A DNA stretch of 64,000 nucleotides from a virus. Lineage: Duplodnaviria; Heunggongvirae; Uroviricota; Caudoviricetes. The notes below the pieces were generated by a model, which did no database searches, had not been told where the DNA came from, and worked only from the letters and a program-made list of their open reading frames with translations. Made by a program: the position numbers and the translations under genes. Below are positions 5,559-59,747 of this stretch, piece after piece (position 1 is the stretch's first letter; each line of letters opens with the position of its first letter). The DNA lies in IMG/VR virus record IMGVR_UViG_3300023707_000001, one strand, 5' to 3'.

Positions 5559-6638
5559 ATGCTGTTCTTGAATAATAAAACCACAATTGGTTTTAATGAC
5601 AATTATCCTTACGGGAATGGCGGAGCAAGCGTCACAGATAGGGTTATTACCGATAAGATGTTGTCTGATTTGGAGCTTCGTCTGGCGGCAGAAGGCCTTC
5701 CGGACAAGCTCAATCAAAAAACACTTGTACTTGACCCTACAACCGGGCAAATTGTAATTGGTGACGGGTCAGGAAATCCCAAAGTAATATCCTGCATAAA
5801 GGTAATTGGTACATTAGACGACCTGCCTGTAACCGGCCTTAATGACATGCTTTATGTCGCCATTTTTGAAAAAGCATTCGCTATTTGGGATAGCAGCAAC
5901 AATGCTTATGTAAAAATGGGAACCGGCGATTCGGGAAGTACCGCGCTGGATAAATCGGTTGAAACATATCCGTCGGTTGCAAATTTCCCGCTCGAAGGCG
6001 AAAAAGACAAACTGTATGTTACATATAGCGGCAAGAGCTACTTCTTTGTTGATGGAAAGTACCGCCCCTTGTTTAGTGGAGGTGTGGATGCTTACACGAA
6101 AGAGGAAGCAGACGAGCTTTTCGCAAAGGAAGAAGTTCTTGGACAAAAGGCAGACGCAGAGTCAGTTTACACAAAGAATGAAGTAGATGACCTTTTAAGC
6201 ACGGTTCAAGCTGAAAAAGGTGAGCAGGGCGAAAAGGGAGACCAAGGTGACCCGGGTAAATCTGCTTATGACATTGCTTCGGAGGCCGGATTTGACGGAA
6301 GCGAAGAAGAATGGCTGGAGTCTCTGCGTGGCGAGCAAGGTGCAGATGGTATTTCTGGACGAGATGGTGCGTCCGCTTACGAGATTGCCAAGAATAACGG
6401 CTTTACTGGGACAGAAGAGGAATGGCTCGAATCCTTAAAGTCGGATGCTGACGTTTCAGTTGTTACACCAGACGATATTGACGCACTCTTTAATGAAAGG
6501 GAAGAGCAGAAGCTGGAAGATGTTCTCTCCGTCGCTTCTCTTGAAGAGGTCGATGCCTTGTTCAAGAATAAGCCAGTCATGGAAGTAGAACCTCTGCGCA
6601 TCGCTTCCCTTGAAGAAATAGATGCTCTTTTTCAATAA
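5559..6638 (+). CDS. Collagen-like tail fibre/appendage protein
   Basis: GXY repeats (GEQGEKGDQGDPG); two SAY(D/E)IA...GFxGxEEEWLESL repeats; three C-terminal (E/D)(I/V)DALF repeats. Confidence 0.7.
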   Translation: MLFLNNKTTIGFNDNYPYGNGGASVTDRVITDKMLSDLELRLAAEGLPDKLNQKTLVLDPTTGQIVIGDGSGNPKVISCIKVIGTLDDLPVTGLNDMLYVAIFEKAFAIWDSSNNAYVKMGTGDSGSTALDKSVETYPSVANFPLEGEKDKLYVTYSGKSYFFVDGKYRPLFSGGVDAYTKEEADELFAKEEVLGQKADAESVYTKNEVDDLLSTVQAEKGEQGEKGDQGDPGKSAYDIASEAGFDGSEEEWLESLRGEQGADGISGRDGASAYEIAKNNGFTGTEEEWLESLKSDADVSVVTPDDIDALFNEREEQKLEDVLSVASLEEVDALFKNKPVMEVEPLRIASLEEIDALFQ

Positions 6639-6666
6639 AATAAAAACGAAAGGAACGGAGTGAAAC

Positions 6667-8097
6667 ATGGATACTCGTCCAGAGGAAGTAACTGAAGAAA
6701 ATATTGATGAAAAATTAATCAACTACGCCGACCTTAGACGTTTTGGTGAAAATATAAATAGGCATTATGCCTCCGTTGGCGTCTTAAAAGCAAAGGCCAA
6801 TATCACCGAAGTGTATACCCGCAAGGAAATCGATGATAAGCTGGCTGATATTTCTGTTGGCGAAGGCGTTAAGGGTGACAAAGGTGACCCCGGAGAACAG
6901 GGCCCAAAAGGTGACCCTGGCCAAGACGGACAAAACGGCCGTGATGGTACAGATGGGAAATCCGCCTTTGAAATCGCAAAAGAGAATGGCTTTGCAGGGA
7001 GCGAAGCAGAGTGGCTGAAATCACTGCAGGGAACCCCTGGCACAAATGGAGTTTCGGGACAAGATGGTGAGTCTGCTTACGAAATTGCCGTAAGAAATGG
7101 TTTTAAGGGCACAGAAAAAGAATGGCTGGAGTCCTTAAAGGGAGAAGGCGGCACGCCTGCAGACCCCATCGATACAACAAATTTTGTACAGAAGAATGAA
7201 CTGGAAGGATATGCTACGAAGGAAGACATCCCCGATGTTACCGGACTTGCCAAGAAAAGTGACATCCCGGATGTATCCAACTTAGCAAAAAAGAGCGATA
7301 TTCCTGATGTATCAAACCTTGCTACAAAGGATGATATTCCTGACCTTACAGGCTATGCTAAAGCTGAAGATATTCCCAAGCAGAAAACATTGGCGGAGCT
7401 GGGCGGCGTAACACAGACCGGCGTTGAGGCAATCATTCAGGCAAAAGATTTTACATCCACTGACGTTGTAAGGCAAATGATTGAAGCTGCCATTGCTGAG
7501 GCCTTGAAGAATAATGGTGGCAATAGTGGCAGTGGCGAGAGCGGTAGCGGCGGTAATAGTGGCAGCGACACTCCAGAACCGGAGCCTACTCCGCAACCAT
7601 CACTGCCTCAATTTGATGAAAGCGACTACGCATGGACGCACTACTTTGTAGTTCCGGCCGGCTGTCATTTTATAACTGACCATGCCAGCACCTTCTTCGG
7701 TGACCCGCTAACACCGGAAGACCTGTTTGGTCCCAACTATGACATGAAGAATGCTACAACCGAAATTCGTGTACTTGGTACATTGAGAGATAACGAAAAC
7801 ACCGAAACGGTGGTTGATGACGCCATTAAAGGGCGCACAATCGGTTACGACTTCACCGAGTATTATAAAGAGGGCTTAAGGGTGCCGCTGGATGCTGCCG
7901 AAGGGGTAGACGTGGATGGCTTCTGTAAAGAGCTCGATAGGGTTTGCCGTTGGAACGATGGCGCCATTAGCCACGACGGTGAAGAGATAATGGAAACAAC
8001 CTTGATGACTTCCGGATGTGGACTCCTATATATCATCCGTAAGCTGAAAGATGGCAAGACGTTCCCCGAGTATACAATTGGTGAAAAACTCAAATAA
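6667..8097 (+). CDS. Collagen-like tail fibre/appendage protein
   Basis: GXY repeats; SA(F/Y)EIA...EWLxSL repeats; 11-aa AKKSDIPDVSN repeats; Gly/Ser and PEP linker before a globular C-terminal domain. Confidence 0.7.
   Translation: MDTRPEEVTEENIDEKLINYADLRRFGENINRHYASVGVLKAKANITEVYTRKEIDDKLADISVGEGVKGDKGDPGEQGPKGDPGQDGQNGRDGTDGKSAFEIAKENGFAGSEAEWLKSLQGTPGTNGVSGQDGESAYEIAVRNGFKGTEKEWLESLKGEGGTPADPIDTTNFVQKNELEGYATKEDIPDVTGLAKKSDIPDVSNLAKKSDIPDVSNLATKDDIPDLTGYAKAEDIPKQKTLAELGGVTQTGVEAIIQAKDFTSTDVVRQMIEAAIAEALKNNGGNSGSGESGSGGNSGSDTPEPEPTPQPSLPQFDESDYAWTHYFVVPAGCHFITDHASTFFGDPLTPEDLFGPNYDMKNATTEIRVLGTLRDNENTETVVDDAIKGRTIGYDFTEYYKEGLRVPLDAAEGVDVDGFCKELDRVCRWNDGAISHDGEEIMETTLMTSGCGLLYIIRKLKDGKTFPEYTIGEKLK
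7210..7380 (+). repeat. 33-nt coding tandem repeat (about 5 copies of xAxKxDIPDxxx)
   Basis: YATKEDIPDVTG LAKKSDIPDVSN LAKKSDIPDVSN LATKDDIPDLTG YAKAEDIP. Confidence 0.8.
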
Positions 8098-9220: not shown

Positions 9221-9904
9221 TTGGCTACGAAAACTCGCGGTATACGCAAAGTTAGCGAAAACGTTCTCGCTCCTGGCAGAGCGATAATTATTACCGAAAA
9301 AGATAAAGACAAGTACAAGTGGGGAGACATCCCTGTCGGCTCGAAATTTATCGACACAGCCACGGGAATCGAAATGGTCAAACTCGAAGGCGAGAGCGAC
9401 TGGGTTCCCGCAGGTGTTAAAAATGATGGAACGATTTGTATTTCCAAGGACTCCGTAATCACTTGTGAAATTTACACAATCACGGAAATAGATAAAGATA
9501 AAAGAACATTCCGGTATCATAACGAAGATGGTGAGTATAGGAACTCAACAATGGTTTATGATGAGGAAACCGAAGAGCTGACCTATTTGTTTAAAGTTGA
9601 AAAGGGCGATTTTCAGCCGGGACGAAACCTGCTGCAGGTAACCCTTAATGATGCACTGACCCGTTCCGCTGCATCGGGCGGCTTGGTTGAAATCACAAAC
9701 CGCCACTTTGGTTTCGTTGAAAACCTGGAAGTTGGCGATGAACTCACTGTTATTTATATCCATAAAATCAATATCGGCAATCCATATCCGAGAATTTTCT
9801 ACGGGGGCACGGTTCCTGTTGATGCGGAAGATGGAGACCTCTGGCTTGATACATCTTCGGCACCGTATAACGGAAATGAGATAGTTGAGGTACAAGGGGA
9901 ATAA
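9221..9904 (+). CDS. Structural-region protein; N-terminus paralogous to 15889-16911
   Basis: RGIRKVSENV...GRAII...IPVGSKFID vs QGVHKVSENI...GRGVI...VPDGSIWVN; C-terminal DAEDGDLWLDT fibre motif. Confidence 0.55.
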   Translation: MATKTRGIRKVSENVLAPGRAIIITEKDKDKYKWGDIPVGSKFIDTATGIEMVKLEGESDWVPAGVKNDGTICISKDSVITCEIYTITEIDKDKRTFRYHNEDGEYRNSTMVYDEETEELTYLFKVEKGDFQPGRNLLQVTLNDALTRSAASGGLVEITNRHFGFVENLEVGDELTVIYIHKINIGNPYPRIFYGGTVPVDAEDGDLWLDTSSAPYNGNEIVEVQGE

Positions 9905-9906
9905 AA

Positions 9907-11199
9907 ATGAGTGAAAGAAAGAAAAAGAAAACAGCCCTTATAAGGGAGCATATGCTTGAGCCGGATTTTCGCAAGAAGATTCGTCTCAACGACAAACTGA
10001 TTGGGCTTGACGACCTTACCCCCGAAATTCGTAAGAAGATAACCAATATTGCTTTGAATGAGGGAACGGCGTATGACGATAATGAACTCCGTGAGCGAAT
10101 TACAAATCTGGAAAACGGAGGAACTACGCTTGGTGAAGTATTCGTAAAAGACCTGGACAAGGTTTCCCGCAAAGACCTGGATTATAATGCTCAGGTGGCA
10201 TATGACAGAGCAAATGAAGTCCCGGAACTGCAGGAGAAGAAAGCGGATAAAGAATATGTGGATGAAAACTTCCGCAAGAAGGCTATCCCAGTAATTCAGG
10301 GCGACTTTGACCCACTGCTGCAGAAAAAGCTTAATGATATGCAGGCAAATCTTAACAGTATCATGGCAAATTTTGATTCCAATAGCGGTGCAGTAACCTC
10401 CGTCCAAGCCCTCGAAGAGGCAGTTAAAAACCTTAGTACGACGAAGGTTGAAAAGACCTACGTGGATAAAACCTTCCGTAAGGCTATTGACCAAATTTCG
10501 TTGTCTGATGTGGATAGCACTATCGCAGAGCCTGTCAATTCAATCCCGCAGATGCAGAAAAAATTGGATGACGCGGCAATGCTGTCAGACCTGGAAAACT
10601 ACCGGCCAAAAGCAGATCAAATCCGAATGGAAGATATGACAAACGATTTGCGCGATAAGCTTAAGAAAGTTTTCGATAGTGCGGACGATGCTAAGAAGGC
10701 CGCAGAAGAGTCATTCAAAGAAAACTTTGATTCCTATGGTATAACCCAGATACTCGACCGTTATGGTGACCTTATCTGTACAGACCCTGTTAACCCGCAT
10801 GTAATTGCTGGTGTTGACCAGATGAGTGACATGGAAAGAAAGTTCAAAGGTATTTATCCGTTCAGTCTTGCCGTAAACATCACAAAGTATATCGGGACGT
10901 ATGGTATCGGGGAGTCCAATCCATTGGGCGGCCGCATGAGTTTTTCCGGAGCTATCAATTATCTGTACGATTTGATTATGAAGACGTCCGGTGATGAAAG
11001 CCCGTTTGGCCTGTTCTTGAACTCTGGTAAAAAAGATATTAAGAAGCTCCGGGATGAATTGGATGCCTTAACGGAAACGGTCGAAACTATGCAGGGCGAT
11101 ATTGAAGACCTGCAGACGGAAAACACTGCACTGAAAGAGCGCGTCAAAAAACTGGAAGATAGCAGTAGCAGCGGAAGCGACAGCGGTGGAAAAAAATAA
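9907..11199 (+). CDS. Coiled-coil structural-region protein
   Basis: YDDNELRERITNLE, KADKEYVD and a C-terminal coiled coil. Confidence 0.55.
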   Translation: MSERKKKKTALIREHMLEPDFRKKIRLNDKLIGLDDLTPEIRKKITNIALNEGTAYDDNELRERITNLENGGTTLGEVFVKDLDKVSRKDLDYNAQVAYDRANEVPELQEKKADKEYVDENFRKKAIPVIQGDFDPLLQKKLNDMQANLNSIMANFDSNSGAVTSVQALEEAVKNLSTTKVEKTYVDKTFRKAIDQISLSDVDSTIAEPVNSIPQMQKKLDDAAMLSDLENYRPKADQIRMEDMTNDLRDKLKKVFDSADDAKKAAEESFKENFDSYGITQILDRYGDLICTDPVNPHVIAGVDQMSDMERKFKGIYPFSLAVNITKYIGTYGIGESNPLGGRMSFSGAINYLYDLIMKTSGDESPFGLFLNSGKKDIKKLRDELDALTETVETMQGDIEDLQTENTALKERVKKLEDSSSSGSDSGGKK

Positions 11200-11217: not shown

Positions 11218-11847
11218 ATGAGATTACTTAGGTACGATGCAAAAAAGAAACGGTGGATACAGCTGTTTGCCGATTCTGCCTTGGATAAGTATAAAAACCT
11301 TTCGGATGTCGTTGATAAAAAAGCGGCACGAGATAATCTCGAACTGGATGAATATTATTGGAATAAAGCGGCGTTGAAAGACGGCGCCGCTGTCAATTCC
11401 ATCCATAACGTATGTGTTATCCAGGATGAGAAAGCTCAGTTTGTAACGAAGGCAGATAAAGAAAACTGGAACCAGAAGGTAGACCGGCCAATCGTAAAAT
11501 CCACTGCGGATGAAGAACTTCCCGAAATGACGGAAGGCCAGATGGTTTACAACCGCGCTACGGATACCATCAAGGTTAAGATTGACGGTAAAATTCGCGA
11601 TTTTGAAAACAACCGCGAAATCCATGGCACAGCAAATTTTGCAGGAATGGGAAATGAAGTTAAGATTGAACATCATCTGGAAACCATTCACGGCGTAAAA
11701 ATAACGCCAAAATTTGTTGGCATATCATGTGTCACCAACCCTGGAGGAATGTTAGGTGAAACATGGACGAGAAAAGACGATACGTATTTTTATGTAGGGA
11801 ATACAGGTAGTTATCAAGGGCCATTTGAATATATGGTTTACTACTAA
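11218..11847 (+). CDS. Tail-fibre-like protein
   Basis: NLSDVVDKKAARDNLEL and QFVTKADKENWNQK motifs typical of phage fibres. Confidence 0.6.
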   Translation: MRLLRYDAKKKRWIQLFADSALDKYKNLSDVVDKKAARDNLELDEYYWNKAALKDGAAVNSIHNVCVIQDEKAQFVTKADKENWNQKVDRPIVKSTADEELPEMTEGQMVYNRATDTIKVKIDGKIRDFENNREIHGTANFAGMGNEVKIEHHLETIHGVKITPKFVGISCVTNPGGMLGETWTRKDDTYFYVGNTGSYQGPFEYMVYY

Positions 11848-11869
11848 GGTTTTTTTGGAGGAAATAATT

Positions 11870-13144
11870 TTGAGACAACTACCAACAGCGGCAAGCTTAC
11901 TTTTAACGGAAAACTGCAACTTGCGATGCACTTATTGTTTTGAGAAACACAACAAAACAAAAATGAGCAAAGAGGTTGGACGAAAGGCAATCGACTGGCT
12001 TTCGGATAATGCTGTGAAAACAGGCCTGGATGAGTTTTCCGTTCTCCTCTTTGGGGGAGAACCGCTACTCAATATCGACACGATTGAGGAAGTGTTAGAA
12101 TACGGCGTAAAAGTCGCAGACGAAAAAGGACTCCGCTTTACGGCGTCAATGGTTACGAATGCCACAGTAATGAATGACCATATTTATAGCGTACTCCGTA
12201 AATACCGCGACATGGTTAATCTTGGCATACAGCTTTCTGTGGATGGAATTCCTGAAGTACAGGACAGATACAGATTGACGGTTGCCGGAAAAGGCTCGTG
12301 GCATATGGTTGAAAAGAATCTGCCAAGATTCAAGGAGCTTTACGATAACAACCCGGACGATAACCGCCTGTCCATTCATGGCTGCATCAATAAGGAAACA
12401 ATGCCATTCCTGTATGAGAATTACAACTTCTTCCGTAAGGAATTAGGGTTCAAGCGTATCTGGTTCCTTCCGATAGCCGAGGAAAAATGGGATGCGTCAG
12501 ATGTAAAGCTCTATCAGGAAAACAGCCAAAAAATCTTCAACGACTGTGTCGCAGATTTGCTGCAGAGCATGGACTATCAGGAAGCTCTCAATTATGCGCC
12601 GTTTGATAAGTTTGCAAATGGTCTGGAGTGTCGCCCGGACGCACCGTGCGGCGCCGGCAGAAGTTTTGTCACAATAACCGCAACGGGCGAAATTTATCCA
12701 TGCCATCAAATCTACTTCAATGACCCGGAAAAAGATACGCTGATTGGCAATGTGATGGGCGATGGAGAACTGGATGAAGACAGACGAAGAATTTTCCTTG
12801 AATACGAAGAGGAAGATATTGGATGTCAGGATTGCCCAAATACACAGTGCTACAGATGTCTTGCTACAAACTATGTAAACAACGGAGGCATTCTCTCTCA
12901 AATTAGGGGGCTGTATTGTGCCCTGTCTGGTATCGACAGATATTTCCAAGGCAAAATGTTGGAGGTTGTACGGAAATTGCGTCTGGCATCACAGGGCGAC
13001 GATGAAGTGCAGGACTGCTTGTGTAATTCCCGAAGTGCAACGTCAGTTAATGGCTGCGATATCGTAAATAACAAAGACTTGTGTCAGTCGGGAAACAATC
13101 CTAAAGCGCCGGGATGCCTCTGCGACGTAGATAGCGGATTTTAA
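11870..13144 (+). CDS. Radical SAM/SPASM-domain enzyme (anSME/peptide-maturase type) with Cys-rich C-terminal tail
   Basis: CNLRCTYC; FGGEPLL; SPASM CGAG...GEIYPCH...CQDC...CYRC...C; GGAGG RBS before TTG 11870. Confidence 0.92.
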   Translation: MRQLPTAASLLLTENCNLRCTYCFEKHNKTKMSKEVGRKAIDWLSDNAVKTGLDEFSVLLFGGEPLLNIDTIEEVLEYGVKVADEKGLRFTASMVTNATVMNDHIYSVLRKYRDMVNLGIQLSVDGIPEVQDRYRLTVAGKGSWHMVEKNLPRFKELYDNNPDDNRLSIHGCINKETMPFLYENYNFFRKELGFKRIWFLPIAEEKWDASDVKLYQENSQKIFNDCVADLLQSMDYQEALNYAPFDKFANGLECRPDAPCGAGRSFVTITATGEIYPCHQIYFNDPEKDTLIGNVMGDGELDEDRRRIFLEYEEEDIGCQDCPNTQCYRCLATNYVNNGGILSQIRGLYCALSGIDRYFQGKMLEVVRKLRLASQGDDEVQDCLCNSRSATSVNGCDIVNNKDLCQSGNNPKAPGCLCDVDSGF

Positions 13145-13171
13145 CAGAATAATGAATAAGAGGACGATAGG

Positions 13172-13957
13172 ATGGCTTTAAGAAGCTTAAAAAACACATA
13201 CAGCCGAATGGTTGATGATATAAGACAAAGCGGGCCAGCCAATAATGATTGGAAGGATTTGGCAACCTTAAAGGACCGGCTTGACAAAATGTATAAGTAT
13301 CGCAATAACGAGATAATCGATAGCGACCCCAGAAATTCAAATGATGATACGCCAGGACAGATTCATAATGTGTGTACGCAACATTATTACAAAAGCTTCA
13401 AGGACTTCCAGCAGAAAATGGGAGTGGATTACAGCCTGTCCATCGGTGATATCGACAATGCTCTCGATAGTATGCCGTATTGTACATGCAATGGCCGGTC
13501 TATGCAAGCATGCAAATGTGTGGCCCGAGATGCTGGCGATCATTGTTCGTGCAATGTAAGAGCGCCTATTGGGTGCGCTTGCGTATACCGCAACGGTGGC
13601 AAGTATGGCAGCCCGTGTGCAATAAATAGCTACAATTTTGGATGCAGCTGTGTAAGCCGGGCGGCTACTAGAGATTGTGATTGCAACGGTCGTTGCTCCT
13701 GTAATGTGGTGAATGAATACACCATGAAAACATATAGACAGAAGCTAAACGACGAAGGCATTACGGAAACCTGCCGTTGTGTATCAAGGCAGCTTGGCGA
13801 TGTATGCCTGTGTCACGCCAGAACTGTTGCAGCACAACCCCCTACTCATAGGCATACAATGGGGTGTAATACAAAGTATAATGTGCCGCAAAAATATTGT
13901 GACTGCGTACAGAGAACGTCATCAATATCGTGTGAATACCACGAAATACATTTATAA
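13172..13957 (+). CDS. Cys-rich CxCxxR-repeat protein, putative radical SAM substrate
   Basis: 24 Cys; nine CxCxxR motifs after an approximately 100-aa Cys-poor N-terminus; GAGGA RBS. Confidence 0.8.
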   Translation: MALRSLKNTYSRMVDDIRQSGPANNDWKDLATLKDRLDKMYKYRNNEIIDSDPRNSNDDTPGQIHNVCTQHYYKSFKDFQQKMGVDYSLSIGDIDNALDSMPYCTCNGRSMQACKCVARDAGDHCSCNVRAPIGCACVYRNGGKYGSPCAINSYNFGCSCVSRAATRDCDCNGRCSCNVVNEYTMKTYRQKLNDEGITETCRCVSRQLGDVCLCHARTVAAQPPTHRHTMGCNTKYNVPQKYCDCVQRTSSISCEYHEIHL

Positions 13958-13986
13958 GTAGTTAGTTAAGTAGTTAAGGAGTTAAT

Positions 13987-14880
13987 ATGCTGGAAAGATA
14001 CGTCATTCACGTTACCAAAGCATGCAATATGGATTGTTTTTACTGCTACGAGCAGGACAAAACAAGCAAGTATACAAAAGAGGAAGTTCTTGGCACCGTT
14101 GAAAAAATCGCCGCAAATTGCAAAGACAAAGAATTTGGTGTGGAATTTCTTGGCGGTGAGCCAATGCTTGCTTTTGATATTATCAAGGCGGTATATGAAT
14201 ATTTGGAGGAAAATTACAAGGGCCGCGTCAGGGATTACGTCATCACAACAAACGGCACAATACTGACGGATGATATGTTGGCATACCTACAGGAAAATCC
14301 TAAAATCGTATATGCTGTTAGCCTGGACGGTACGAAGTGGGCAAACCAGCTTCGCCGTTTTAAGGGCGGGGCCGGAGCATTTGAGCCGGTTGTGGCAAAC
14401 TTAAAGAAAGCAATCAACGGGCTTTCCGATGAACAGATAAGCGTACATATGGTAACGCATCCATTTAATGTCGGCAACATATTTAATAGCATTAAGTTTA
14501 TTCATAGCATGGGTGTTAAATACATCGGTGTTGGTACAGTGGAAAGTACAATGCTTATTGATGCGATGTACTGTGAAAGATTCGTTCAGGAAATGGATAA
14601 AGTAAGCCAGGCTATTGTTAGTGGTGAGCTGGCCGGGGTGGAGATAGATATTCTAAACACCGTTAAGCCTGTTGATGATGTGCGTACGTACATTAAAGAT
14701 GATACCGGCAAGGTAATCGGCGAAAGCTATGGTAGAAGCAAGGACGATATAACGTATACGAATGAATTTAACAGCGTGCGTACGGCATCGCCGATTGGGG
14801 ATGTAATTGTTTCGCTGCGCAGATGCGTTTATGAAAATCACCAGTATAGACTCGGAGGAAATAATGATAAAATCGCTTGA
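13987..14880 (+). CDS. Radical SAM enzyme lacking SPASM cysteines
   Basis: CNMDCFYC; FLGGEPML; ITTNG; VSLDG; AAGGAG RBS. Confidence 0.9.
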   Translation: MLERYVIHVTKACNMDCFYCYEQDKTSKYTKEEVLGTVEKIAANCKDKEFGVEFLGGEPMLAFDIIKAVYEYLEENYKGRVRDYVITTNGTILTDDMLAYLQENPKIVYAVSLDGTKWANQLRRFKGGAGAFEPVVANLKKAINGLSDEQISVHMVTHPFNVGNIFNSIKFIHSMGVKYIGVGTVESTMLIDAMYCERFVQEMDKVSQAIVSGELAGVEIDILNTVKPVDDVRTYIKDDTGKVIGESYGRSKDDITYTNEFNSVRTASPIGDVIVSLRRCVYENHQYRLGGNNDKIA

Positions 14881-15853
14881 ACACATCAAAGGACTTTGGG
14901 CAAAGTTAGACAAAAACGAAAAGCTGAGCATATACATCAATATCCCGTTCTGTAAATGTCAGTGCAGGTATTGCCTTTATAAAGGAGAGCCGGGCGCGGG
15001 GGACGAAGAACATCGAAAGTTTGTATACGATTACCTGATTCCGTCAATCAAAAGATTCCATGACTTATTCGATGAGCATGAAATCGAAACGATATACTTC
15101 GGTGGCGGAACACCAAATGCAATCCCCATAAAATACATTATGGATATATGCGATGCAACAGCATGCTTCAATCGAGCAAAGAATAGAATTATTGAAATGA
15201 ATCCGGCGTACTGCTCCGTTCAGGACGTAGAACTGTTAACCGATTTTGGTTTTACACTGATTACGTTCGGCGTTCAGTCGTTCTGCAAAGAAGCTCTTAA
15301 TTTCCAGCAAAGGCCATACTGCAGCGAGGATAAAATCACAAAACTTGGCAAGGCTATCCAGTCTCTTGGCGGAAAGTTCAGTCTGGACATCATGTGCTAT
15401 TTGCTAAAGTATGACAAGAGCGACCTTGAGATATTCAAACAGGATGTTGAGATTGCGAAAAGAACGAACGCGGACTTTGTAACGATATACCCGGAGCTGA
15501 ACCTAATCCTGAATGATGAACAGGCAGCAAACGATTTTGTGCAATGCGTAAAGAATGTTGACTGGAGCGGATATTGGCTGGACGATGATACTACCAATAT
15601 AGAAAAGACGCACAGATTGATAACTCGGATGGTTAAGGACAAATACAGTGAAGAAGAATTCTATGAAAGCATCCTTCCTTATTATGCGGACGACTTCCCA
15701 TACGCAACACAAAACATTGTTAGTTTTGGCGCAGGAAATGGTAAGCATGATGTAATGTCCTATGTGCCGGGAGAATTCTATTATGTAGAAGTCAACCTGG
15801 GAACCAATACACCAATATACAATATGAAATTCGAAGAAGGGGAACCGCAATAG
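14864..15853 (+). CDS. HemN-like (class C) radical SAM enzyme
   Basis: SIYINIPFCKCQCRYC; TIYFGGGTP; TFGVQSF; GGAGG before ATG 14864; overlaps the upstream stop. Confidence 0.88.
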   Translation: MIKSLEHIKGLWAKLDKNEKLSIYINIPFCKCQCRYCLYKGEPGAGDEEHRKFVYDYLIPSIKRFHDLFDEHEIETIYFGGGTPNAIPIKYIMDICDATACFNRAKNRIIEMNPAYCSVQDVELLTDFGFTLITFGVQSFCKEALNFQQRPYCSEDKITKLGKAIQSLGGKFSLDIMCYLLKYDKSDLEIFKQDVEIAKRTNADFVTIYPELNLILNDEQAANDFVQCVKNVDWSGYWLDDDTTNIEKTHRLITRMVKDKYSEEEFYESILPYYADDFPYATQNIVSFGAGNGKHDVMSYVPGEFYYVEVNLGTNTPIYNMKFEEGEPQ

Positions 15854-15888: not shown

Positions 15889-16911
15889 ATGTCCAAGCCT
15901 CAGGGTGTCCATAAAGTCAGCGAAAACATTGTTCAGCTGGGAAGAGGAGTAATCTATACAGAAGAACTGGACAATATCGATATGGAAAAAGTCCCAGATG
16001 GTTCTATTTGGGTGAATGTAGACAATGGTGGTTTGGCGGTAAAGTTGAGAGGGAGCGATTCATTCACAGAGCTCCCAATCGGCCTTGCTGACGCTGATGA
16101 TGACGAAAGTCAGAAACTGCTGGAAGAGTTTGTAAAAAAGTATGCAAACGCCGATATCCAGCACAAGCACATCGAGGAAGATGTCCTAAAAAATAAAGAG
16201 AAGATACAAGAGTTAAAATCTCTGCTTGAAAAACTGCAAGAGCAAATTCACAACATAAACATATACGCCCTATACGAAAGTTTGACTGACAGGTTTACAG
16301 AGCAGGGAAACGAAATTATAACACTGCGAAGGGAAAAACTCGATAAGAAGGACCTAAAGCTCTTTGTTACAATAGACCAGATGGAACCGATTATCCAGGA
16401 AAGGACAGCGCAGTTTGCAAGCAGAAAAGAGCTTGCTGAAATAAAAACCGACTTCAACAATGTCGTAAAGACCTTTGCAACAAAAGATGAGCTGGATAAA
16501 AAGCTGTTTGAAAAAACACAGCCACTGGCTCAAGAGAAAGACGTTCAAACGTTAGGGGAGCAGTTAAAAACGCTTATTCAGGAAGTAGAGGAAATCAAGC
16601 TTGATAACCAGGAGAAAGCAAAAGAGCTAGATGAAAAGTTTGGGGATATTGACGATAAGCTTATTGAGCTCGACGCAGCAACCGGAGATAAGGTTATCAA
16701 ATCGCTTACACTGGAAGCTGGACAAACCAAGCCATGCGAAATTGACGAAGGAAAGCAATATCGCATAATGCAAGTTTATATCAAAAAGCCGAGCGAGGAC
16801 TTGTGGTCATTCGATACAGAGCAAATTGATGTTGCAGCTGATGAGAATGGGGCAGTTAATGTTACAAACAAGTCATCGAATGAACTTGATTGTTTACTGA
16901 TACTGATGTAA
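15889..16911 (+). CDS. Coiled-coil structural-region protein (N-terminal paralog of 9221)
   Basis: GGAGG RBS; shared KVSEN N-terminal domain; long heptad region. Confidence 0.55.
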   Translation: MSKPQGVHKVSENIVQLGRGVIYTEELDNIDMEKVPDGSIWVNVDNGGLAVKLRGSDSFTELPIGLADADDDESQKLLEEFVKKYANADIQHKHIEEDVLKNKEKIQELKSLLEKLQEQIHNINIYALYESLTDRFTEQGNEIITLRREKLDKKDLKLFVTIDQMEPIIQERTAQFASRKELAEIKTDFNNVVKTFATKDELDKKLFEKTQPLAQEKDVQTLGEQLKTLIQEVEEIKLDNQEKAKELDEKFGDIDDKLIELDAATGDKVIKSLTLEAGQTKPCEIDEGKQYRIMQVYIKKPSEDLWSFDTEQIDVAADENGAVNVTNKSSNELDCLLILM

Positions 16912-16914
16912 TAG

Positions 16915-18000
16915 GTGATAACAATGAAATCAAAAGCTACAGCACTTCATGTTGCAGAATTGAATGAGAGAGTCTTGGATAACGCAAGAAATGTAAGACG
17001 CTGTCTCGAAATGGTTGAAGAAATAGCCATACAGATTAACGAAGCGATTGAAAGCTACCGTAATTTTAAGCGGGATAAGAAAGTTTGCATGGATGCCGTT
17101 AATCTGGAGGTAACAAACCGAGAACTCCAGTACGGAGTAATTGAAAAGCAGATGGCCGGTATCCAAAAAGCTGCCCGTGAGATGGAGGACATGCGGGAGA
17201 GCTTTGAAGAAACCAGAGCAACTGTGGTGGAGAATTCGTCAACCATCACAGATATTACGAAAAACATTGAACAGCTAAAAAACGACGTCACAAAAGAATT
17301 TGCAAAGAAGATAAGCACATCTGGCGGCACGATATATGGTGACCTGACCGTAACCGGCATGGTTAATGGCCGTGCTGAGAAAGCAAAGGAAGCGGAAAGT
17401 GTCGAGTGGGATGCTGTGCAAAACAGGCCGGAATATTATCCGCCCGCACAACATAACCATGATGACCTTTATCCTGCAATCAATGGTGAGCGGGCCGAAG
17501 GTAAATGGAATATCGATATTTCTGGTAAGGCAGATAAGGCTGGCGATGCAGACCGAGCCGATAATGCCGACCATGCAGCAGTTGCAGATAAGATTGATTG
17601 GGCAGGTATTGAGAACAAACCAGAAAATTACCCGCCGGCAGAGCATAACCACGATGCCTTGTATCCATCCATAAAAGGTGAACGTGCAGAAGGTGTCTGG
17701 AATATTGATATCGACGGTGAGGCAAAAAGGGCCAAATCCGACAGCGAAGGCAATATTATCACTGCAACCTATGTGAAAAAAACTGACATGGGGGAACTGC
17801 AGAAAGAAATCGGCAAAATTTCGACGGAGATAAAAGAATCCTTAAAGGGGACATCTGTTGAAAACGAAACGCCGGATGAAAAAATCACGCTGCGCTGTGA
17901 AGTTGAAAATGGCATGCTCACGGTTGTTCCTTATGTGAATGGGGAGCGGGCCTACATTACTTCCAGTGTTATTGCCTGTGAAGACACCAGTGAAGAATAA
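16915..18000 (+). CDS. Tail-fibre-like protein with internal repeat
   Basis: Two copies of W..(V/I).N(R/K)PE.YPPA.HNHD.LYP.I.GERAEG.WNIDI; GGTIYGDLTVTG motif. Confidence 0.65.
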   Translation: MITMKSKATALHVAELNERVLDNARNVRRCLEMVEEIAIQINEAIESYRNFKRDKKVCMDAVNLEVTNRELQYGVIEKQMAGIQKAAREMEDMRESFEETRATVVENSSTITDITKNIEQLKNDVTKEFAKKISTSGGTIYGDLTVTGMVNGRAEKAKEAESVEWDAVQNRPEYYPPAQHNHDDLYPAINGERAEGKWNIDISGKADKAGDADRADNADHAAVADKIDWAGIENKPENYPPAEHNHDALYPSIKGERAEGVWNIDIDGEAKRAKSDSEGNIITATYVKKTDMGELQKEIGKISTEIKESLKGTSVENETPDEKITLRCEVENGMLTVVPYVNGERAYITSSVIACEDTSEE

Positions 18001-18080
18001 TAAAGAAAAACATAACGCGGTCTTGTTTAGACCGCCGTTTGTGTGCGTAATATTCCGACAAGAAAGATAAAATAAGAAAG

Positions 18081-58262: not shown

Positions 58263-59747
58263 TCATTCCTCCATAAGCTTGATTATCCTCTTTATATTTG
58301 TTACAAAGAGCGTAGTTGCTCCTTGTAATTCCATGCCTTTCAGGCCTGATGACGATGCTATATCGTAACCATGCCTGTGCTTAATTTCGCTATTCTTAGC
58401 TTCTATCATATATCTCAGAGATGCCAGTTCTTTGAAATGCGCTGTTTCTTGGAAATCTTTCTGTCGTTTATGCTGATCGCATATGATTCTGACAGAATAA
58501 GTTTTAGATTTGGCACCTGGCTTGTAGCAGGCGCCGCACTGCGGGCAATTTTTACATTTTTCAATATCGAAATAGTAGGTAGTTATTTGATTCTTATTTA
58601 CGTTCTTACGGCCAGTACGGGCTTTCCGGATAGCCATATGGCCTTCGGGGCACACAAACATATCGGCGTCCTTGTTATAGTGGAAGCCGCCGTCTCCTTC
58701 TGCGTGAGTGCTATCAGATATAACAGGGTTCAGCTTAGATATAAGTTCAAAAGATTTCTCTGGCGACCCCGCTGACTCTGCCAGCTCAAGATTTTTCTTT
58801 CCTGAATATGCGGTATCACCTATAACCGTATCGACATCCACTCCTGCAGCTTTCGTTTTATTTACCAACATTTCGAGTTGTTCGCCATCGCTGCGCTCCC
58901 CACTGGTGATTACGGCAGCAGTAATAATTCTCTCATCTGTCATAGCAATGTGCGTTTTGTAGCCAAAGAAGGACGTATCAGCAGTTTTGTGACCAGTTCT
59001 AGCGTCAGTATCTTTTGACTGCTGTAGATGCTCAGCATTGTCATTTACAACTTCACTGAGCATGTTCAATTTTTCTTTGACTGCAGGAATAGATGATACA
59101 ATAGAATCTTCTTCAATAACATGTGTTAAATCACGACAATATTGAAGAGCATCTTCAATATTGTCGTTCTCTACCTTCTTGGGGAACTTCTTTTTCCAGT
59201 CCGGGGAAGCGGTCTTATATACTGTCTTACGCAAAAGCTTGGCCTGTTCCAGCAGTTGGGCATAAGCAGACTTCTGGTTATATCTTGCCTTGGTGTGGGT
59301 GGCATCTACGATTATGCGATTGCTCTTGAGTACGCCCTTATCTATAGCTATTTGCACACTTTTAGCGATGAGCATATCCAGAAGGTTCTCATCTGCCAGT
59401 CTCAGTTTGCGGAATTTGGTCAGAGTGGTAGAGTGTATAACATCATCCTCCGGGCGCAGGCCAAGAAAATATTTGAATGACATATCATAACGGCTGCGCT
59501 CTACCAAATCGGCATCAGACATATTGTACAATACTTTAAGGAGAAGATACTTGAACAATAGGATAGGCGATACTGCCATGCGCCCATTATCCAAGCAATA
59601 CTTCTCCCTTAGCTCGTCATATATAAAAGAGAAGTCAACGAGTTTGTTGAATTTTCTGAGAAAATGGTCTTTAGGTATGAGATTGTGGTATAACCCTTCA
59701 TAGGAACTAAACTCAAGTTGCTGAGCGTTGACAAGCATAAATGCCAC
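58263..59747 (-). CDS. IS1182-family DDE transposase
   Basis: IPKDHFLRK, IVDATH, DTDAR.GHK....FFGYKTH, GDTAY, FVCPEGH, RYMIEAKNSEIK. Confidence 0.93.
   Translation of the reverse strand: MAFMLVNAQQLEFSSYEGLYHNLIPKDHFLRKFNKLVDFSFIYDELREKYCLDNGRMAVSPILLFKYLLLKVLYNMSDADLVERSRYDMSFKYFLGLRPEDDVIHSTTLTKFRKLRLADENLLDMLIAKSVQIAIDKGVLKSNRIIVDATHTKARYNQKSAYAQLLEQAKLLRKTVYKTASPDWKKKFPKKVENDNIEDALQYCRDLTHVIEEDSIVSSIPAVKEKLNMLSEVVNDNAEHLQQSKDTDARTGHKTADTSFFGYKTHIAMTDERIITAAVITSGERSDGEQLEMLVNKTKAAGVDVDTVIGDTAYSGKKNLELAESAGSPEKSFELISKLNPVISDSTHAEGDGGFHYNKDADMFVCPEGHMAIRKARTGRKNVNKNQITTYYFDIEKCKNCPQCGACYKPGAKSKTYSVRIICDQHKRQKDFQETAHFKELASLRYMIEAKNSEIKHRHGYDIASSSGLKGMELQGATTLFVTNIKRIIKLMEE

Follow-up and report, generated by a model that had tools for sequence, protein, structure and literature searches.

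A CxCxxR-repeat protein from the tail-fibre region of an uncultured phage as a candidate whole-protein substrate of adjoining radical SAM enzymes

Introduction

To our knowledge, crosslinking by radical SAM enzymes was long known for short peptides only. For the ranthipeptide/SCIFF maturases (CteB-CteA, PapB-PapA and Tte1186), the substrate is a peptide of about 45 amino acid residues, and Asp, Glu and Thr, but not Arg, are known as acceptors. The CXXX-repeat system (TIGR04115/TIGR04114) combines a radical SAM/SPASM enzyme with a Cys-repeat protein that has one Cys every 3–4 residues. QhpD, likewise a radical SAM/SPASM enzyme, makes several intraprotein Cys thioethers in the form of Cys-Asp/Glu links, and its target QhpC, a small, non-repeat subunit, stays in a larger assembly. 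The first experimental proof of a large Cys-repeat protein as a radical SAM substrate dates from 2026 and comes from one archaeal system, in which CrpC puts thioethers on the protein CrpA, which has a leader-like N-terminus, at C-x-x-acceptor sites (PMC13692751).

The window analysed here is a stretch of 64,000 nucleotides from a large uncultured phage of the Caudoviricetes (IMG/VR record IMGVR_UViG_3300023707_000001). A gene for a CxCxxR-repeat protein, P0001, lies among its tail-fibre genes, in a small cassette of four or five genes that includes three radical SAM genes. A first-pass annotation of the window had read the protein either as a multi-core precursor with each motif as a modification site or as a metallothionein-like fibre, an overall interpretation that is partly supported by the present analysis. 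The features are as follows.

9221..11199, plus strand: two conserved genes upstream of the cassette, within the same syntenic block (synteny BLAST)
11218..11847, plus strand: fibre-tip-like protein of 209 aa, directly upstream of rSAM1 (weak profile and Foldseek matches)
11825..13144, plus strand: rSAM1, radical SAM/SPASM enzyme of the CteB/PapB type (Pfam, NCBIfam and PDB matches)
13016..13033, plus strand: CLCNSR in the C-terminal tail of rSAM1, residues 398–403 (C-L-C-x-x-R invariant in four orthologs)
13115..13132, plus strand: second CLCD motif in the rSAM1 tail (CLCDVD here, CLCDVRS or CLCDSRS in orthologs)
13172..13957, plus strand: CxCxxR-repeat protein P0001, 261 aa
13172..13480, plus strand: N-terminal domain of P0001, helical, Cys-poor, about 100 aa (family alignment, AF2)
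13481..13954, plus strand: Cys-rich region of P0001, nine CxCxxR motifs and CSCNVV (regex scan, family alignment)
13987..14880, plus strand: rSAM2, 297 aa, radical SAM enzyme without SPASM (only the three CxxxCxxC Cys invariant)
14807..15853, plus strand: rSAM3, HemN-like (class C type) radical SAM enzyme (likely start near 14864, giving 329 aa)

Results

The CxCxxR-repeat protein and its family

The P0001 gene starts with ATG, with a Shine-Dalgarno-like box (GAGGA) located about 9 nt upstream. A regex scan returned exactly the motifs listed in the first-pass annotation, with CxCxxR at residues 104, 114, 125, 135, 158, 169, 201, 212 and 243 and CSCNVV at residue 175. The protein contains 24 Cys, 23 of them in residues 101–261; the only one in residues 1–100 is C68, in agreement with the single Cys reported earlier for the first 100 or so residues. 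Nine of the 13 Arg in residues 101–261 are motif Arg. Shuffling these residues 100,000 times never yielded nine motifs (maximum 4). The earlier statement that the DNA is not a tandem repeat also holds: TRF and a direct-repeat finder detected no DNA repeat within the open reading frame, and hence the motif in P0001 is kept at the protein level.

About 30 sequences, all from metagenome assemblies, make up the small, unnamed family of P0001. No match was obtained with Pfam (run on 18 family members), NCBIfam (run on P0001), PHROG including its structural families, or PDB sequences in a profile search of the family. Relatives were found neither in the phage GenBank collection, by DNA or by protein, nor in IMG/VR, JGI metagenome contigs and GTDB genomes, and a profile search of a set of 5.8 billion proteins returned only three further members. 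A protein of 722 aa from the HMMER list (P0026) was dropped as an unrelated repeat protein. In the 612-aa family member P0021, the C-terminal 323 residues are an orphan region without homolog and thus have no bearing on a fibre-tip fusion.

Almost every invariant column in an alignment of 18 family sequences, with identities down to about 29–30%, is Cys or Arg. Judged by this alignment, the CxCxxR motif is under selection, as the first-pass annotation had proposed. Within the family, 86% of the Cys are located in CxC pairs, and 75% of the Arg in the Cys-rich parts occupy motif position 6. Two earlier claims on the motif, an invariant Arg and a position 4 that is nearly always N or V, apply to the nine motifs of P0001 but do not extend to the family, in which Arg occurs at position 6 in 310 of 393 CxC pairs (79%, against an Arg background of 6.7%) and N or V at position 4 in 150 of 277 motifs (54%). 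The motif recurs every 10–11 residues; its family logo reads C-[TSD]-C-[NV]-[SAG]-R-[TS], and small residues predominate at position 5. Homologs carry 5 to 16 motifs, separated by short and variable spacers without a conserved cleavage site. Conserved landmarks outside the repeat are GGKY, a terminal CxCNGRCSCNVVNEY block and a CxxH in the N-terminal domain. In some columns the Cys pair is retained where the Arg is lost, so that Cys, not Arg, is the primary constraint, a pattern that also fits metal binding.

AF2 modelled residues 1–100 of P0001 with a pLDDT of 54–79, except for residues 51–70 (42–46), and the Cys-rich part with a pLDDT of 25–50; the ESM Atlas model had a pLDDT of 0.34. These values suggest that the Cys-rich part may lack an autonomous fold; AF2 confidence this low would be just as likely for a fold that depends on metal. 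The ESM Atlas contained no usable match for P0001, and a Foldseek search of the model against the PDB gave none.

By analogy, the archaeal CrpA/CrpC pair is the nearest experimental precedent for the cassette. P0001 has an architecture analogous to that of CrpA, a large protein in which a leader-like N-terminal region poor in Cys is followed by repeated Cys motifs. As in that system, the distance from the donor Cys to the candidate acceptor is 3 residues, structure prediction of the Cys-rich part has low confidence, and the adjoining enzyme is a SPASM radical SAM protein closer to ranthisynthases. The motifs differ: C-x-C-x-x-R with a period of 10–11 residues in P0001, in contrast to C-x-x-Q/D in a 17-residue repeat in CrpA, and no sequence similarity between the two proteins was detected. 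Unlike CrpC, rSAM1 has no RRE; two additional radical SAM enzymes are encoded beside P0001, and the Crp genes reside on an archaeal chromosome instead of in a phage tail-fibre module. Compared with the ranthipeptide/SCIFF peptides, P0001 is a far larger candidate substrate, of 261 aa with 24 Cys. It also differs from the target of the CXXX-repeat system by its C-x-C pairs, one per 10–11 residues, and its fixed Arg, by the presence of three radical SAM enzymes and by the lack of a match to the target family models; the first-pass annotation had rightly set the protein apart from that type.

The radical SAM enzymes

Gene callers place the start of rSAM1 at 11870, which gives a protein of 424 aa with Pfam matches to Radical_SAM, Fer4_12 and SPASM. 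Its top NCBIfam matches were PapB (NF047865, 205.2 bits, cut-off 340), SCIFF (ScfB, TIGR03974, 146.1 bits, cut-off 425) and QhpD (TIGR03906, 138 bits, cut-off 453), all thioether formers. The QhpD/QhpC system has no phage context. Lower scores were obtained with the CXXX-repeat enzyme model TIGR04115 (109.7 bits, and 54.3 bits for rSAM2, cut-off 350), with the CrpC family model TIGR04463 (82.4 bits over the N-terminal part only, cut-off 525) and with the anSME model TIGR03942 (82.2 bits, cut-off 349). rSAM1 thus falls under every NCBIfam equivalog cut-off. None of the cassette genes matched an NCBIfam helper model.

The top PDB match of rSAM1 was CteB (5WGG, E=1.5e-32). The alignment pairs rSAM1 from residue 17 onwards with CteB from residue 93 onwards, and the cluster motif of rSAM1 follows from residue 31; the N-terminal RRE is therefore absent from rSAM1. 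The invariant Cys are C31/C35/C38, C275, C293, C334, C337, C342, C345 and C365, with the SPASM spacing C275-x17-C293 ... C334-x2-C337-x4-C342-x2-C345 ... C365. An eighth SPASM Cys, C270, occurs in two of the four rSAM1 orthologs, so that only seven are invariant. In CteB, three Cys ligate auxiliary cluster 1 and four Cys auxiliary cluster 2 (PMC10177961). The CteB-like seven-Cys spacing of rSAM1 points to an auxiliary cluster 1 with three Cys ligands and a free site at which a substrate thiolate could bind. In its CxxxCxxC motif, its seven-Cys SPASM domain and its closest sequence matches, rSAM1 hence resembles the ranthipeptide/SCIFF maturases, and it is distinguished from them by the missing RRE, the scores under the equivalog cut-offs and an extra C-terminal tail with CxCxxR. 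A comparison of the P0001 family alignment with that of rSAM1 in hhalign gave a probability of 5.7%; the tail and P0001 accordingly have the motif alone in common, with no demonstrable homology.

A strong ribosome-binding site (AAGGAG) precedes rSAM2. L005, the most distant lineage, has an unrelated radical SAM gene instead of rSAM3.

Linkage to radical SAM genes and genomic neighbourhood

Radical SAM genes adjoin the family member in all nine informative contexts (the window, L001, L002, L003, L004, L005-7, L092, the ERZ1029112 contig and L093), an adjacency that holds down to about 25–30% identity. All six contexts flanked on both sides contain three radical SAM genes. Wherever the flank is long enough, a context comprises a SPASM enzyme, a SPASM-less radical SAM enzyme, a third radical SAM enzyme and, just upstream, the fibre-tip-like protein. 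The SPASM enzymes of these contexts are CteB/PapB-like, without RRE, and carry a conserved CxCxxR tail of their own. The usual order is rSAM1, the CxC protein, rSAM2 and rSAM3; in L005 it is rSAM1, rSAM2, the CxC protein and the other radical SAM gene. The gene set thus stays together after rearrangement of the gene order. The block is syntenic in L001, L003, L092 and ERZ1029112. No protease, exporter/transporter or immunity gene was found in the cassette in the window, L003, L092 and L005. The gene after the cassette in L001 has a partial match to Peptidase_U32 (27.5 bits); U32 proteins were found in none of the remaining contexts.

The neighbours of the cassette match tail-fibre PHROGs. Upstream, the conserved block encodes a coiled-coil protein of 430 aa and a protein of 227 aa that has its N-terminus in common with the fibre gene at 15889..16911. 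The C-terminal part of the 209-aa fibre-tip-like protein is a beta domain of some 70 aa that is conserved throughout the contexts with upstream DNA and was modelled by AF2 with a pLDDT of 67–89. This protein matched small L005 proteins in BLASTP (1e-15 and 3e-11), had a weak profile match to the short tail fibre gp92 (9zd7), and its top weak Foldseek matches were the R2 pyocin tail fibre (E=0.04, prob 0.98) and phage receptor-binding domains. The alternative substrate candidates near the cassette are Cys-poor (0–2 Cys). No strong promoter or terminator was detected in the cassette region before 18017–18035.

Discussion

In our judgement, the cassette is best explained by P0001 being a whole-protein substrate of the surrounding radical SAM enzymes, i.e. 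an analogue of a RiPP precursor that is not released as peptides, a proposal that we hold with only a little more confidence than doubt. The conservation of the motif, the strict gene linkage and the class of the enzymes are observations; from these we infer the substrate relation, the thioether chemistry, the part played by the Arg and the location in the virion. Docking or recognition may be the task of the N-terminal domain, which is helical and about 100 aa long. With its seven-Cys SPASM pattern, rSAM1 would leave an iron of auxiliary cluster 1 open to binding by the thiolate of a motif Cys; the enzyme would then take a hydrogen from a side chain close by, and an intramolecular thioether would be closed. 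The conserved Arg, located at +3 from the second Cys and +5 from the first, may act as the acceptor or as a recognition residue, and rSAM2 and the third radical SAM enzyme may add further modifications to P0001. The repeat domain, with its period of 10–11 residues, would end up stapled in a way that resists reduction. Because of the fixed place of its gene beside the fibre-tip-like gene in the tail-fibre block, stapled P0001 is probably built into or onto the phage fibre apparatus; the gene neighbourhood is what points to a location in the virion. The tail of rSAM1, with an invariant CxCxxR as in P0001, suggests a relation of enzyme and substrate. The missing RRE, which CteB and CrpC use for substrate engagement, and the scores of rSAM1 under every equivalog cut-off count against it.

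Several other readings of the cassette were weighed. P0001 could bind metal or iron-sulfur clusters as an accessory of the three radical SAM enzymes, donating clusters to them, carrying electrons or providing a scaffold; their true substrate would then be another protein, e.g. the fibre-tip-like protein upstream. CxC pairs are typical metal-thiolate ligands and at some columns outlast the Arg, no confident fold is predicted for the Cys-rich part without metal, phage radical SAM enzymes, three in this case, need clusters and electrons, and the motif in the rSAM1 tail could serve docking or cluster transfer. We nevertheless regard this reading as unlikely: P0001 is unlike any ferredoxin, metallothionein or scaffold family, an Arg at +3 after the second Cys in 79% of the pairs serves no evident purpose in metal binding, and a motif number varying from 5 to 16 suits a repetitive substrate or a shaft better than a cofactor site of fixed size. 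The alternative substrates nearby are, moreover, Cys-poor, whereas Cys-rich substrates are used by all of the closest relatives of the enzyme. The least probable of the readings is an unmodified structural protein that owes its stability to disulfides or Zn, with the radical SAM genes adjacent by coincidence, although such Cys-rich repeat proteins are common and the P0001 gene stands among structural genes. The adjacency persists in all nine contexts, down to low identity, and survives a change of gene order, and no family member was found away from radical SAM genes. P0001 matched no known Zn-binding, metallothionein or disulfide fold or family in the Pfam, NCBIfam, PHROG, PDB-sequence and Foldseek searches, and phage proteins fold in a reducing cytoplasm, in which disulfides would not be formed. 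The condition that the first-pass annotation had named as refuting its reading, a match to a known Zn-binding structural family that occurs independently of radical SAM genes, thus did not arise.

The remaining alternatives accept a modification of P0001. Its Cys might be converted without a cross-link to Arg, to formylglycine as by anSME or by another non-crosslinking change, with the Arg serving recognition only. The sulfatase target motif, C/S-x-P/A-x-R, likewise has a fixed Arg shortly after the target Cys, position 5 of the CxCxxR motif is mostly a small residue, and rSAM1 also matches the anSME model and the structures 4K36–4K39. The thioether formers are, however, matched far more strongly (PapB and SCIFF in bit score; CteB against an anSME E-value of 1e-7), the Arg lies at +3 and +5 and not at +4, and rSAM1 has seven invariant SPASM Cys as in CteB, in contrast to the fully ligated auxiliary clusters of anSME; such a conversion therefore appears improbable. 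Still more improbable is the multi-core RiPP precursor proposed by the first-pass annotation as one of its two options, the CxCxxR units of which would be modified and cut out as small secreted peptides with an antimicrobial or signalling role. It would account for repeated units open to modification behind a leader-like N-terminus with few Cys, for the adjoining enzyme of the RiPP-maturase type and for the Peptidase_U32 match in one relative, L001, but U32 proteins are missing from the other contexts, the spacers offer no conserved cleavage site, and no strong promoter or terminator delimits the cassette from the tail-fibre genes before 18017–18035. The whole-protein substrate fits better because the cassette contains no protease or exporter (nor an immunity gene), because GGKY and the terminal RCSCNVVNEY block point to a single folded unit, and because the genes lie in a conserved tail-fibre block.

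A more specific version of the whole-protein substrate is put forward only tentatively, and we doubt it more than we believe it: a fibre-associated phage protein, each repeat unit of which is locked by a thioether from Cys to the Arg side chain, matured by an RRE-less SPASM enzyme that carries the substrate motif in its own tail, as a primer, a mimic or a self-modified latch, together with two more radical SAM enzymes. No description of a Cys-Arg thioether was found in the literature searched. The only precedent for an Arg side chain that we found is a C–C link, reported for WprB (PMC11851443).

If P0001 is indeed a whole-protein substrate, its family would extend protein-level crosslinking to viruses, with C-x-C-x-x-R as a new motif, Arg as a possible acceptor and an enzyme set of three radical SAM proteins without RRE. 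Should the stapled protein belong to the tail-fibre apparatus, phages would chemically staple their own host-recognition machinery, for which we found no description in a paper. Stapling could explain how fibre structures stay intact in reducing, protease-rich anaerobic habitats.

Other features of the window

An IS1182-type transposase was considered as an indicator of the host; its identities were merely 56–61%, to many Bacillota and some Bacteroidota, and no host was assignable from it. No tRNA genes were found in the window. Promoter-like sites occur at chance level, and terminator-like sites are in modest excess (24 against 14.7±4.1).

A CxCxxR-repeat protein among radical SAM genes

The gene of the CxCxxR-repeat protein P0001 sits among three radical SAM genes (rSAM1, rSAM2 and rSAM3), with which it forms a cassette.

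11218..11847, + strand: 209-aa small protein, directly upstream of rSAM1
11825/11870..13144, + strand: rSAM1, with Radical_SAM, Fer4_12 and SPASM domains
13172..13957, + strand: CxCxxR-repeat protein P0001, ATG start, 261 codons
13987..14880, + strand: rSAM2, invariant Cys only the three of CxxxCxxC, no SPASM domain
14807/14864..15853, + strand: rSAM3, HemN-like

Strong Shine-Dalgarno-type sites precede the starts of P0001 (a GAGGA box ~9 nt 5' of the start) and rSAM2. The spacer between these two genes is occupied by a short TAGTTAAG tandem (13963-13985, 2.9 copies), immediately followed by the AAGGAG ribosome-binding site of rSAM2.

A regular-expression scan of P0001 returned precisely the strings listed in the first-pass annotation, nine CxCxxR motifs (residues 104, 114, 125, 135, 158, 169, 201, 212 and 243) and an additional CSCNVV (residue 175). 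The Cys-poor N-terminus described there was also recovered, C68 being the only one of 24 Cys within residues 1-100. Nine of the 13 Arg within residues 101-261 are motif Arg; shuffling of this region produced nine motifs in 0 of 100,000 trials, with four in the best shuffle. TRF and a direct-repeat finder both detected no DNA repeat inside the ORF, as the annotation had stated. In a six-frame translation of the 64-kb window, CxCxxR clustering was confined to P0001; elsewhere the motif occurred in single copies, one being in the tail of rSAM1, whose gene lies upstream.

Pfam, PHROGs and NCBIfam gave no family match for P0001, and nothing was matched in the PDB by profile, in the GenBank phage collection or by fold comparison. 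When 1.84 billion cluster representatives were searched exhaustively with HMMER, 24 proteins were retrieved at E≤1e-3, from which P0026 was dropped as an unrelated repeat protein, and a word-indexed profile search added three further members. All members are unnamed proteins originating from metagenome assemblies; motif counts run from 5 to 16 per protein. In an 18-sequence alignment reaching down to 29% identity, the invariant columns are nearly all Cys or Arg. Across 29 members, 785 of 918 Cys (86%) lie inside CxC pairs, and Arg occupies position 6 in 310 of 393 pairs (79%; Arg background 6.7%), accounting for 310 of the 413 Arg (75%) of the Cys-rich parts. The logo of 277 motifs reads C-[TSD]-C-[NV]-[SAG]-R-[TS], with 11 and 10 residues as the commonest spacings. 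The claim that position 4 is almost always N or V holds for P0001 but not for the family, where these residues fill it in 54% of the 277 motifs.

The array is not featureless: conserved landmarks outside the repeats include an inserted GGKY and, at the end, a CxCNGRCSCN(V/I)VNEY block, while the N-domain conserves a C-x-x-H. The two most distant members, P0027 and P0028, with highly regular CxCxSRT arrays, end at the same terminal block. Member P0021 (L002 325-2163) is extended at its C-terminus by ~330 Tyr/Asn-rich residues, an orphan segment for which no homolog was found. P0024 (165 aa) consists of the N-domain followed by unrelated Cys-poor sequence and may represent a variant or else an artefact of assembly.

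Linkage with radical SAM genes

Besides the window, the loci of nine further family members were examined. Radical SAM genes adjoin the family member at every place with an annotated neighbour (L001, L002, L003, L004, L005-L007, L092, an ERZ1029112 contig and L093); the tenth place, that of P0023, with only truncated neighbours, was left out of the count. All six contexts flanked on both sides contain three radical SAM genes. The small protein directly upstream of rSAM1 is a fifth constant of the cassette.

In L005, which holds the most distant member, the order is rSAM1-rSAM2-CxC-rSAM instead of rSAM1-CxC-rSAM2-rSAM3, and the HemN-like rSAM3 is replaced by a different, non-HemN radical SAM protein (5995-6984, 329 aa, CMAKCPMC motif). 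The third enzyme is thus exchangeable, and the core set persists through rearrangement and partial replacement. This persistence is the strongest evidence that P0001 and the rSAM enzymes probably work together. In L001, the third rSAM gene is followed at 12881-13819 by a gene whose 312-aa product partly matches Peptidase_U32 (27.5 bits) and which has no counterpart in the window.

A tail-fibre setting

All long ORFs of the window lie on the + strand, and the genes at 5559, 6667 and 16915 matched tail-fibre PHROGs. The products of 9221..9904 and 15889..16911 have a common N-terminal segment of ~65 aa (34% identity) and diverge thereafter. Fibre adaptors often have a common N-terminal segment, and the two look like fibres that use one attachment domain, one on each side of the cassette. 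The block (227 aa - 430 aa coiled coil - 209 aa - rSAM1 - CxC - rSAM2 - rSAM3 - ... - 1117 aa - 724 aa) has a syntenic counterpart in L003, a partial one in L001 and, judged by gene sizes, further ones in L092 and ERZ1029112.

The 209-aa protein has a C-terminal domain of ~70 aa that recurs in the two small proteins of L005 (E=1e-15 and 3e-11). Its profile weakly matched the short tail fibre 9zd7 gp92 (E=0.0018). The C-domain was modelled by AF2 with pLDDT 67-89, and Foldseek gave weak matches only, headed by phage receptor-binding domains and the R2 pyocin tail fibre (E=0.04, prob 0.98 for the latter). The contigs that carry P0001 number 15 and reach 340 kb in length; together with the tail-fibre neighbours, this places the cassette in the tail-fibre module of an uncultured phage of very large size.

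The coiled-coil protein of 361 aa at 16915-18000, with weak tail-fibre PHROG matches, contains two copies of a PE(Y/N)YPPA(Q/E)HNHD(D/A)LYP unit with H-x-H within; directly after it lies the single notable terminator-like hairpin (18017-18035). An IS1182-type transposase (58263-59747, - strand) is located inside the phage; its closest relatives, only 56-61% identical, come from Bacillota and in part Bacteroidota, and so point to no particular host.

The radical SAM enzymes

The top NCBIfam matches of rSAM1 were the thioether formers PapB (205 bits), SCIFF maturase (146 bits) and QhpD (138 bits), each below its own cut-off; TIGR04115 (CXXX-repeat) scored 110 and TIGR04463 (CrpC family) 82 bits. 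The closest solved structure is CteB (E=1.5e-32). CteB, of the ranthipeptide/SCIFF type, has an N-terminal leader-binding domain (RRE), whereas rSAM1 lacks one, because the alignment begins only at CteB residue 93. The invariant rSAM1 cysteines C275, C293, C334, C337, C342, C345 and C365 are spaced like the CteB ligands, where auxiliary cluster 1 has three Cys and binds Cys or Sec of the substrate, and cluster 2 has four Cys (PMC10177961).

C-terminal to the SPASM domain, rSAM1 carries a conserved Cys-rich tail with C398-L-C400-x-x-R403 (CLCNSR, 13016-13033), which does not vary among four orthologs as little as 43% identical. Another tail motif, CLCDxRS in two orthologs, has decayed to CLCDVD in the window (13115-13132). 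Bearing the presumed substrate's motif, the tail may mimic the substrate, undergo self-modification or hold an additional metal; hhalign detected no homology with the repeat family past the shared motif.

Interpretation

The most economical reading of the analysis would be that P0001 is the substrate of the cassette and is modified as a whole protein; functional statements past gene linkage and enzyme class are what we infer. The first-pass annotation had suggested a multi-core precursor. Release of small peptides is unlikely, because the cassette in the window encodes no protease or exporter, the family conserves non-repeat landmarks and the genes are placed in a structural operon; a Peptidase_U32 match was seen only in L001, and is partial. 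The main rival is a metal or Fe-S accessory protein, which fits some columns of the 18-sequence alignment in which Arg is lost and the Cys pair kept. With the family alignment, AF2 predicted a helical N-terminal domain (residues 1-100, pLDDT 54-79, falling to 42-46 at residues 51-70), whereas from residue 101 the Cys-rich region was not folded with confidence (pLDDT 25-50); the ESM Atlas model was likewise poor. This fits a Cys-rich region that may need modification or metal for folding, and the low confidence is equally compatible with either.

As a modified substrate, P0001 has a direct precedent in the archaeal Cys-repeat protein CrpA, which has a leader-like N-terminus and in which the SPASM enzyme CrpC forms ranthionine-type thioethers at C-x-x-acceptor sites (PMC13692751). 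The cassette would work like ranthipeptide and Crp maturation, yet it falls outside each named family by scores, RRE, motif and substrate size. A literature search found no paper on the CxCxxR motif, on Cys-Arg thioethers or on radical-SAM-modified phage fibres; the putative substrate family and its motif would be new, with an unusual enzyme set and a viral structural context. In CxCxxR the second Cys stands to the Arg as i to i+3, like the CrpA sites, and the first as i to i+5. The Arg could be a crosslink acceptor, or could serve as recognition residue only. WprB, a radical SAM enzyme, is reported to act at the C-gamma of Arg, for a C-C link (PMC11851443).
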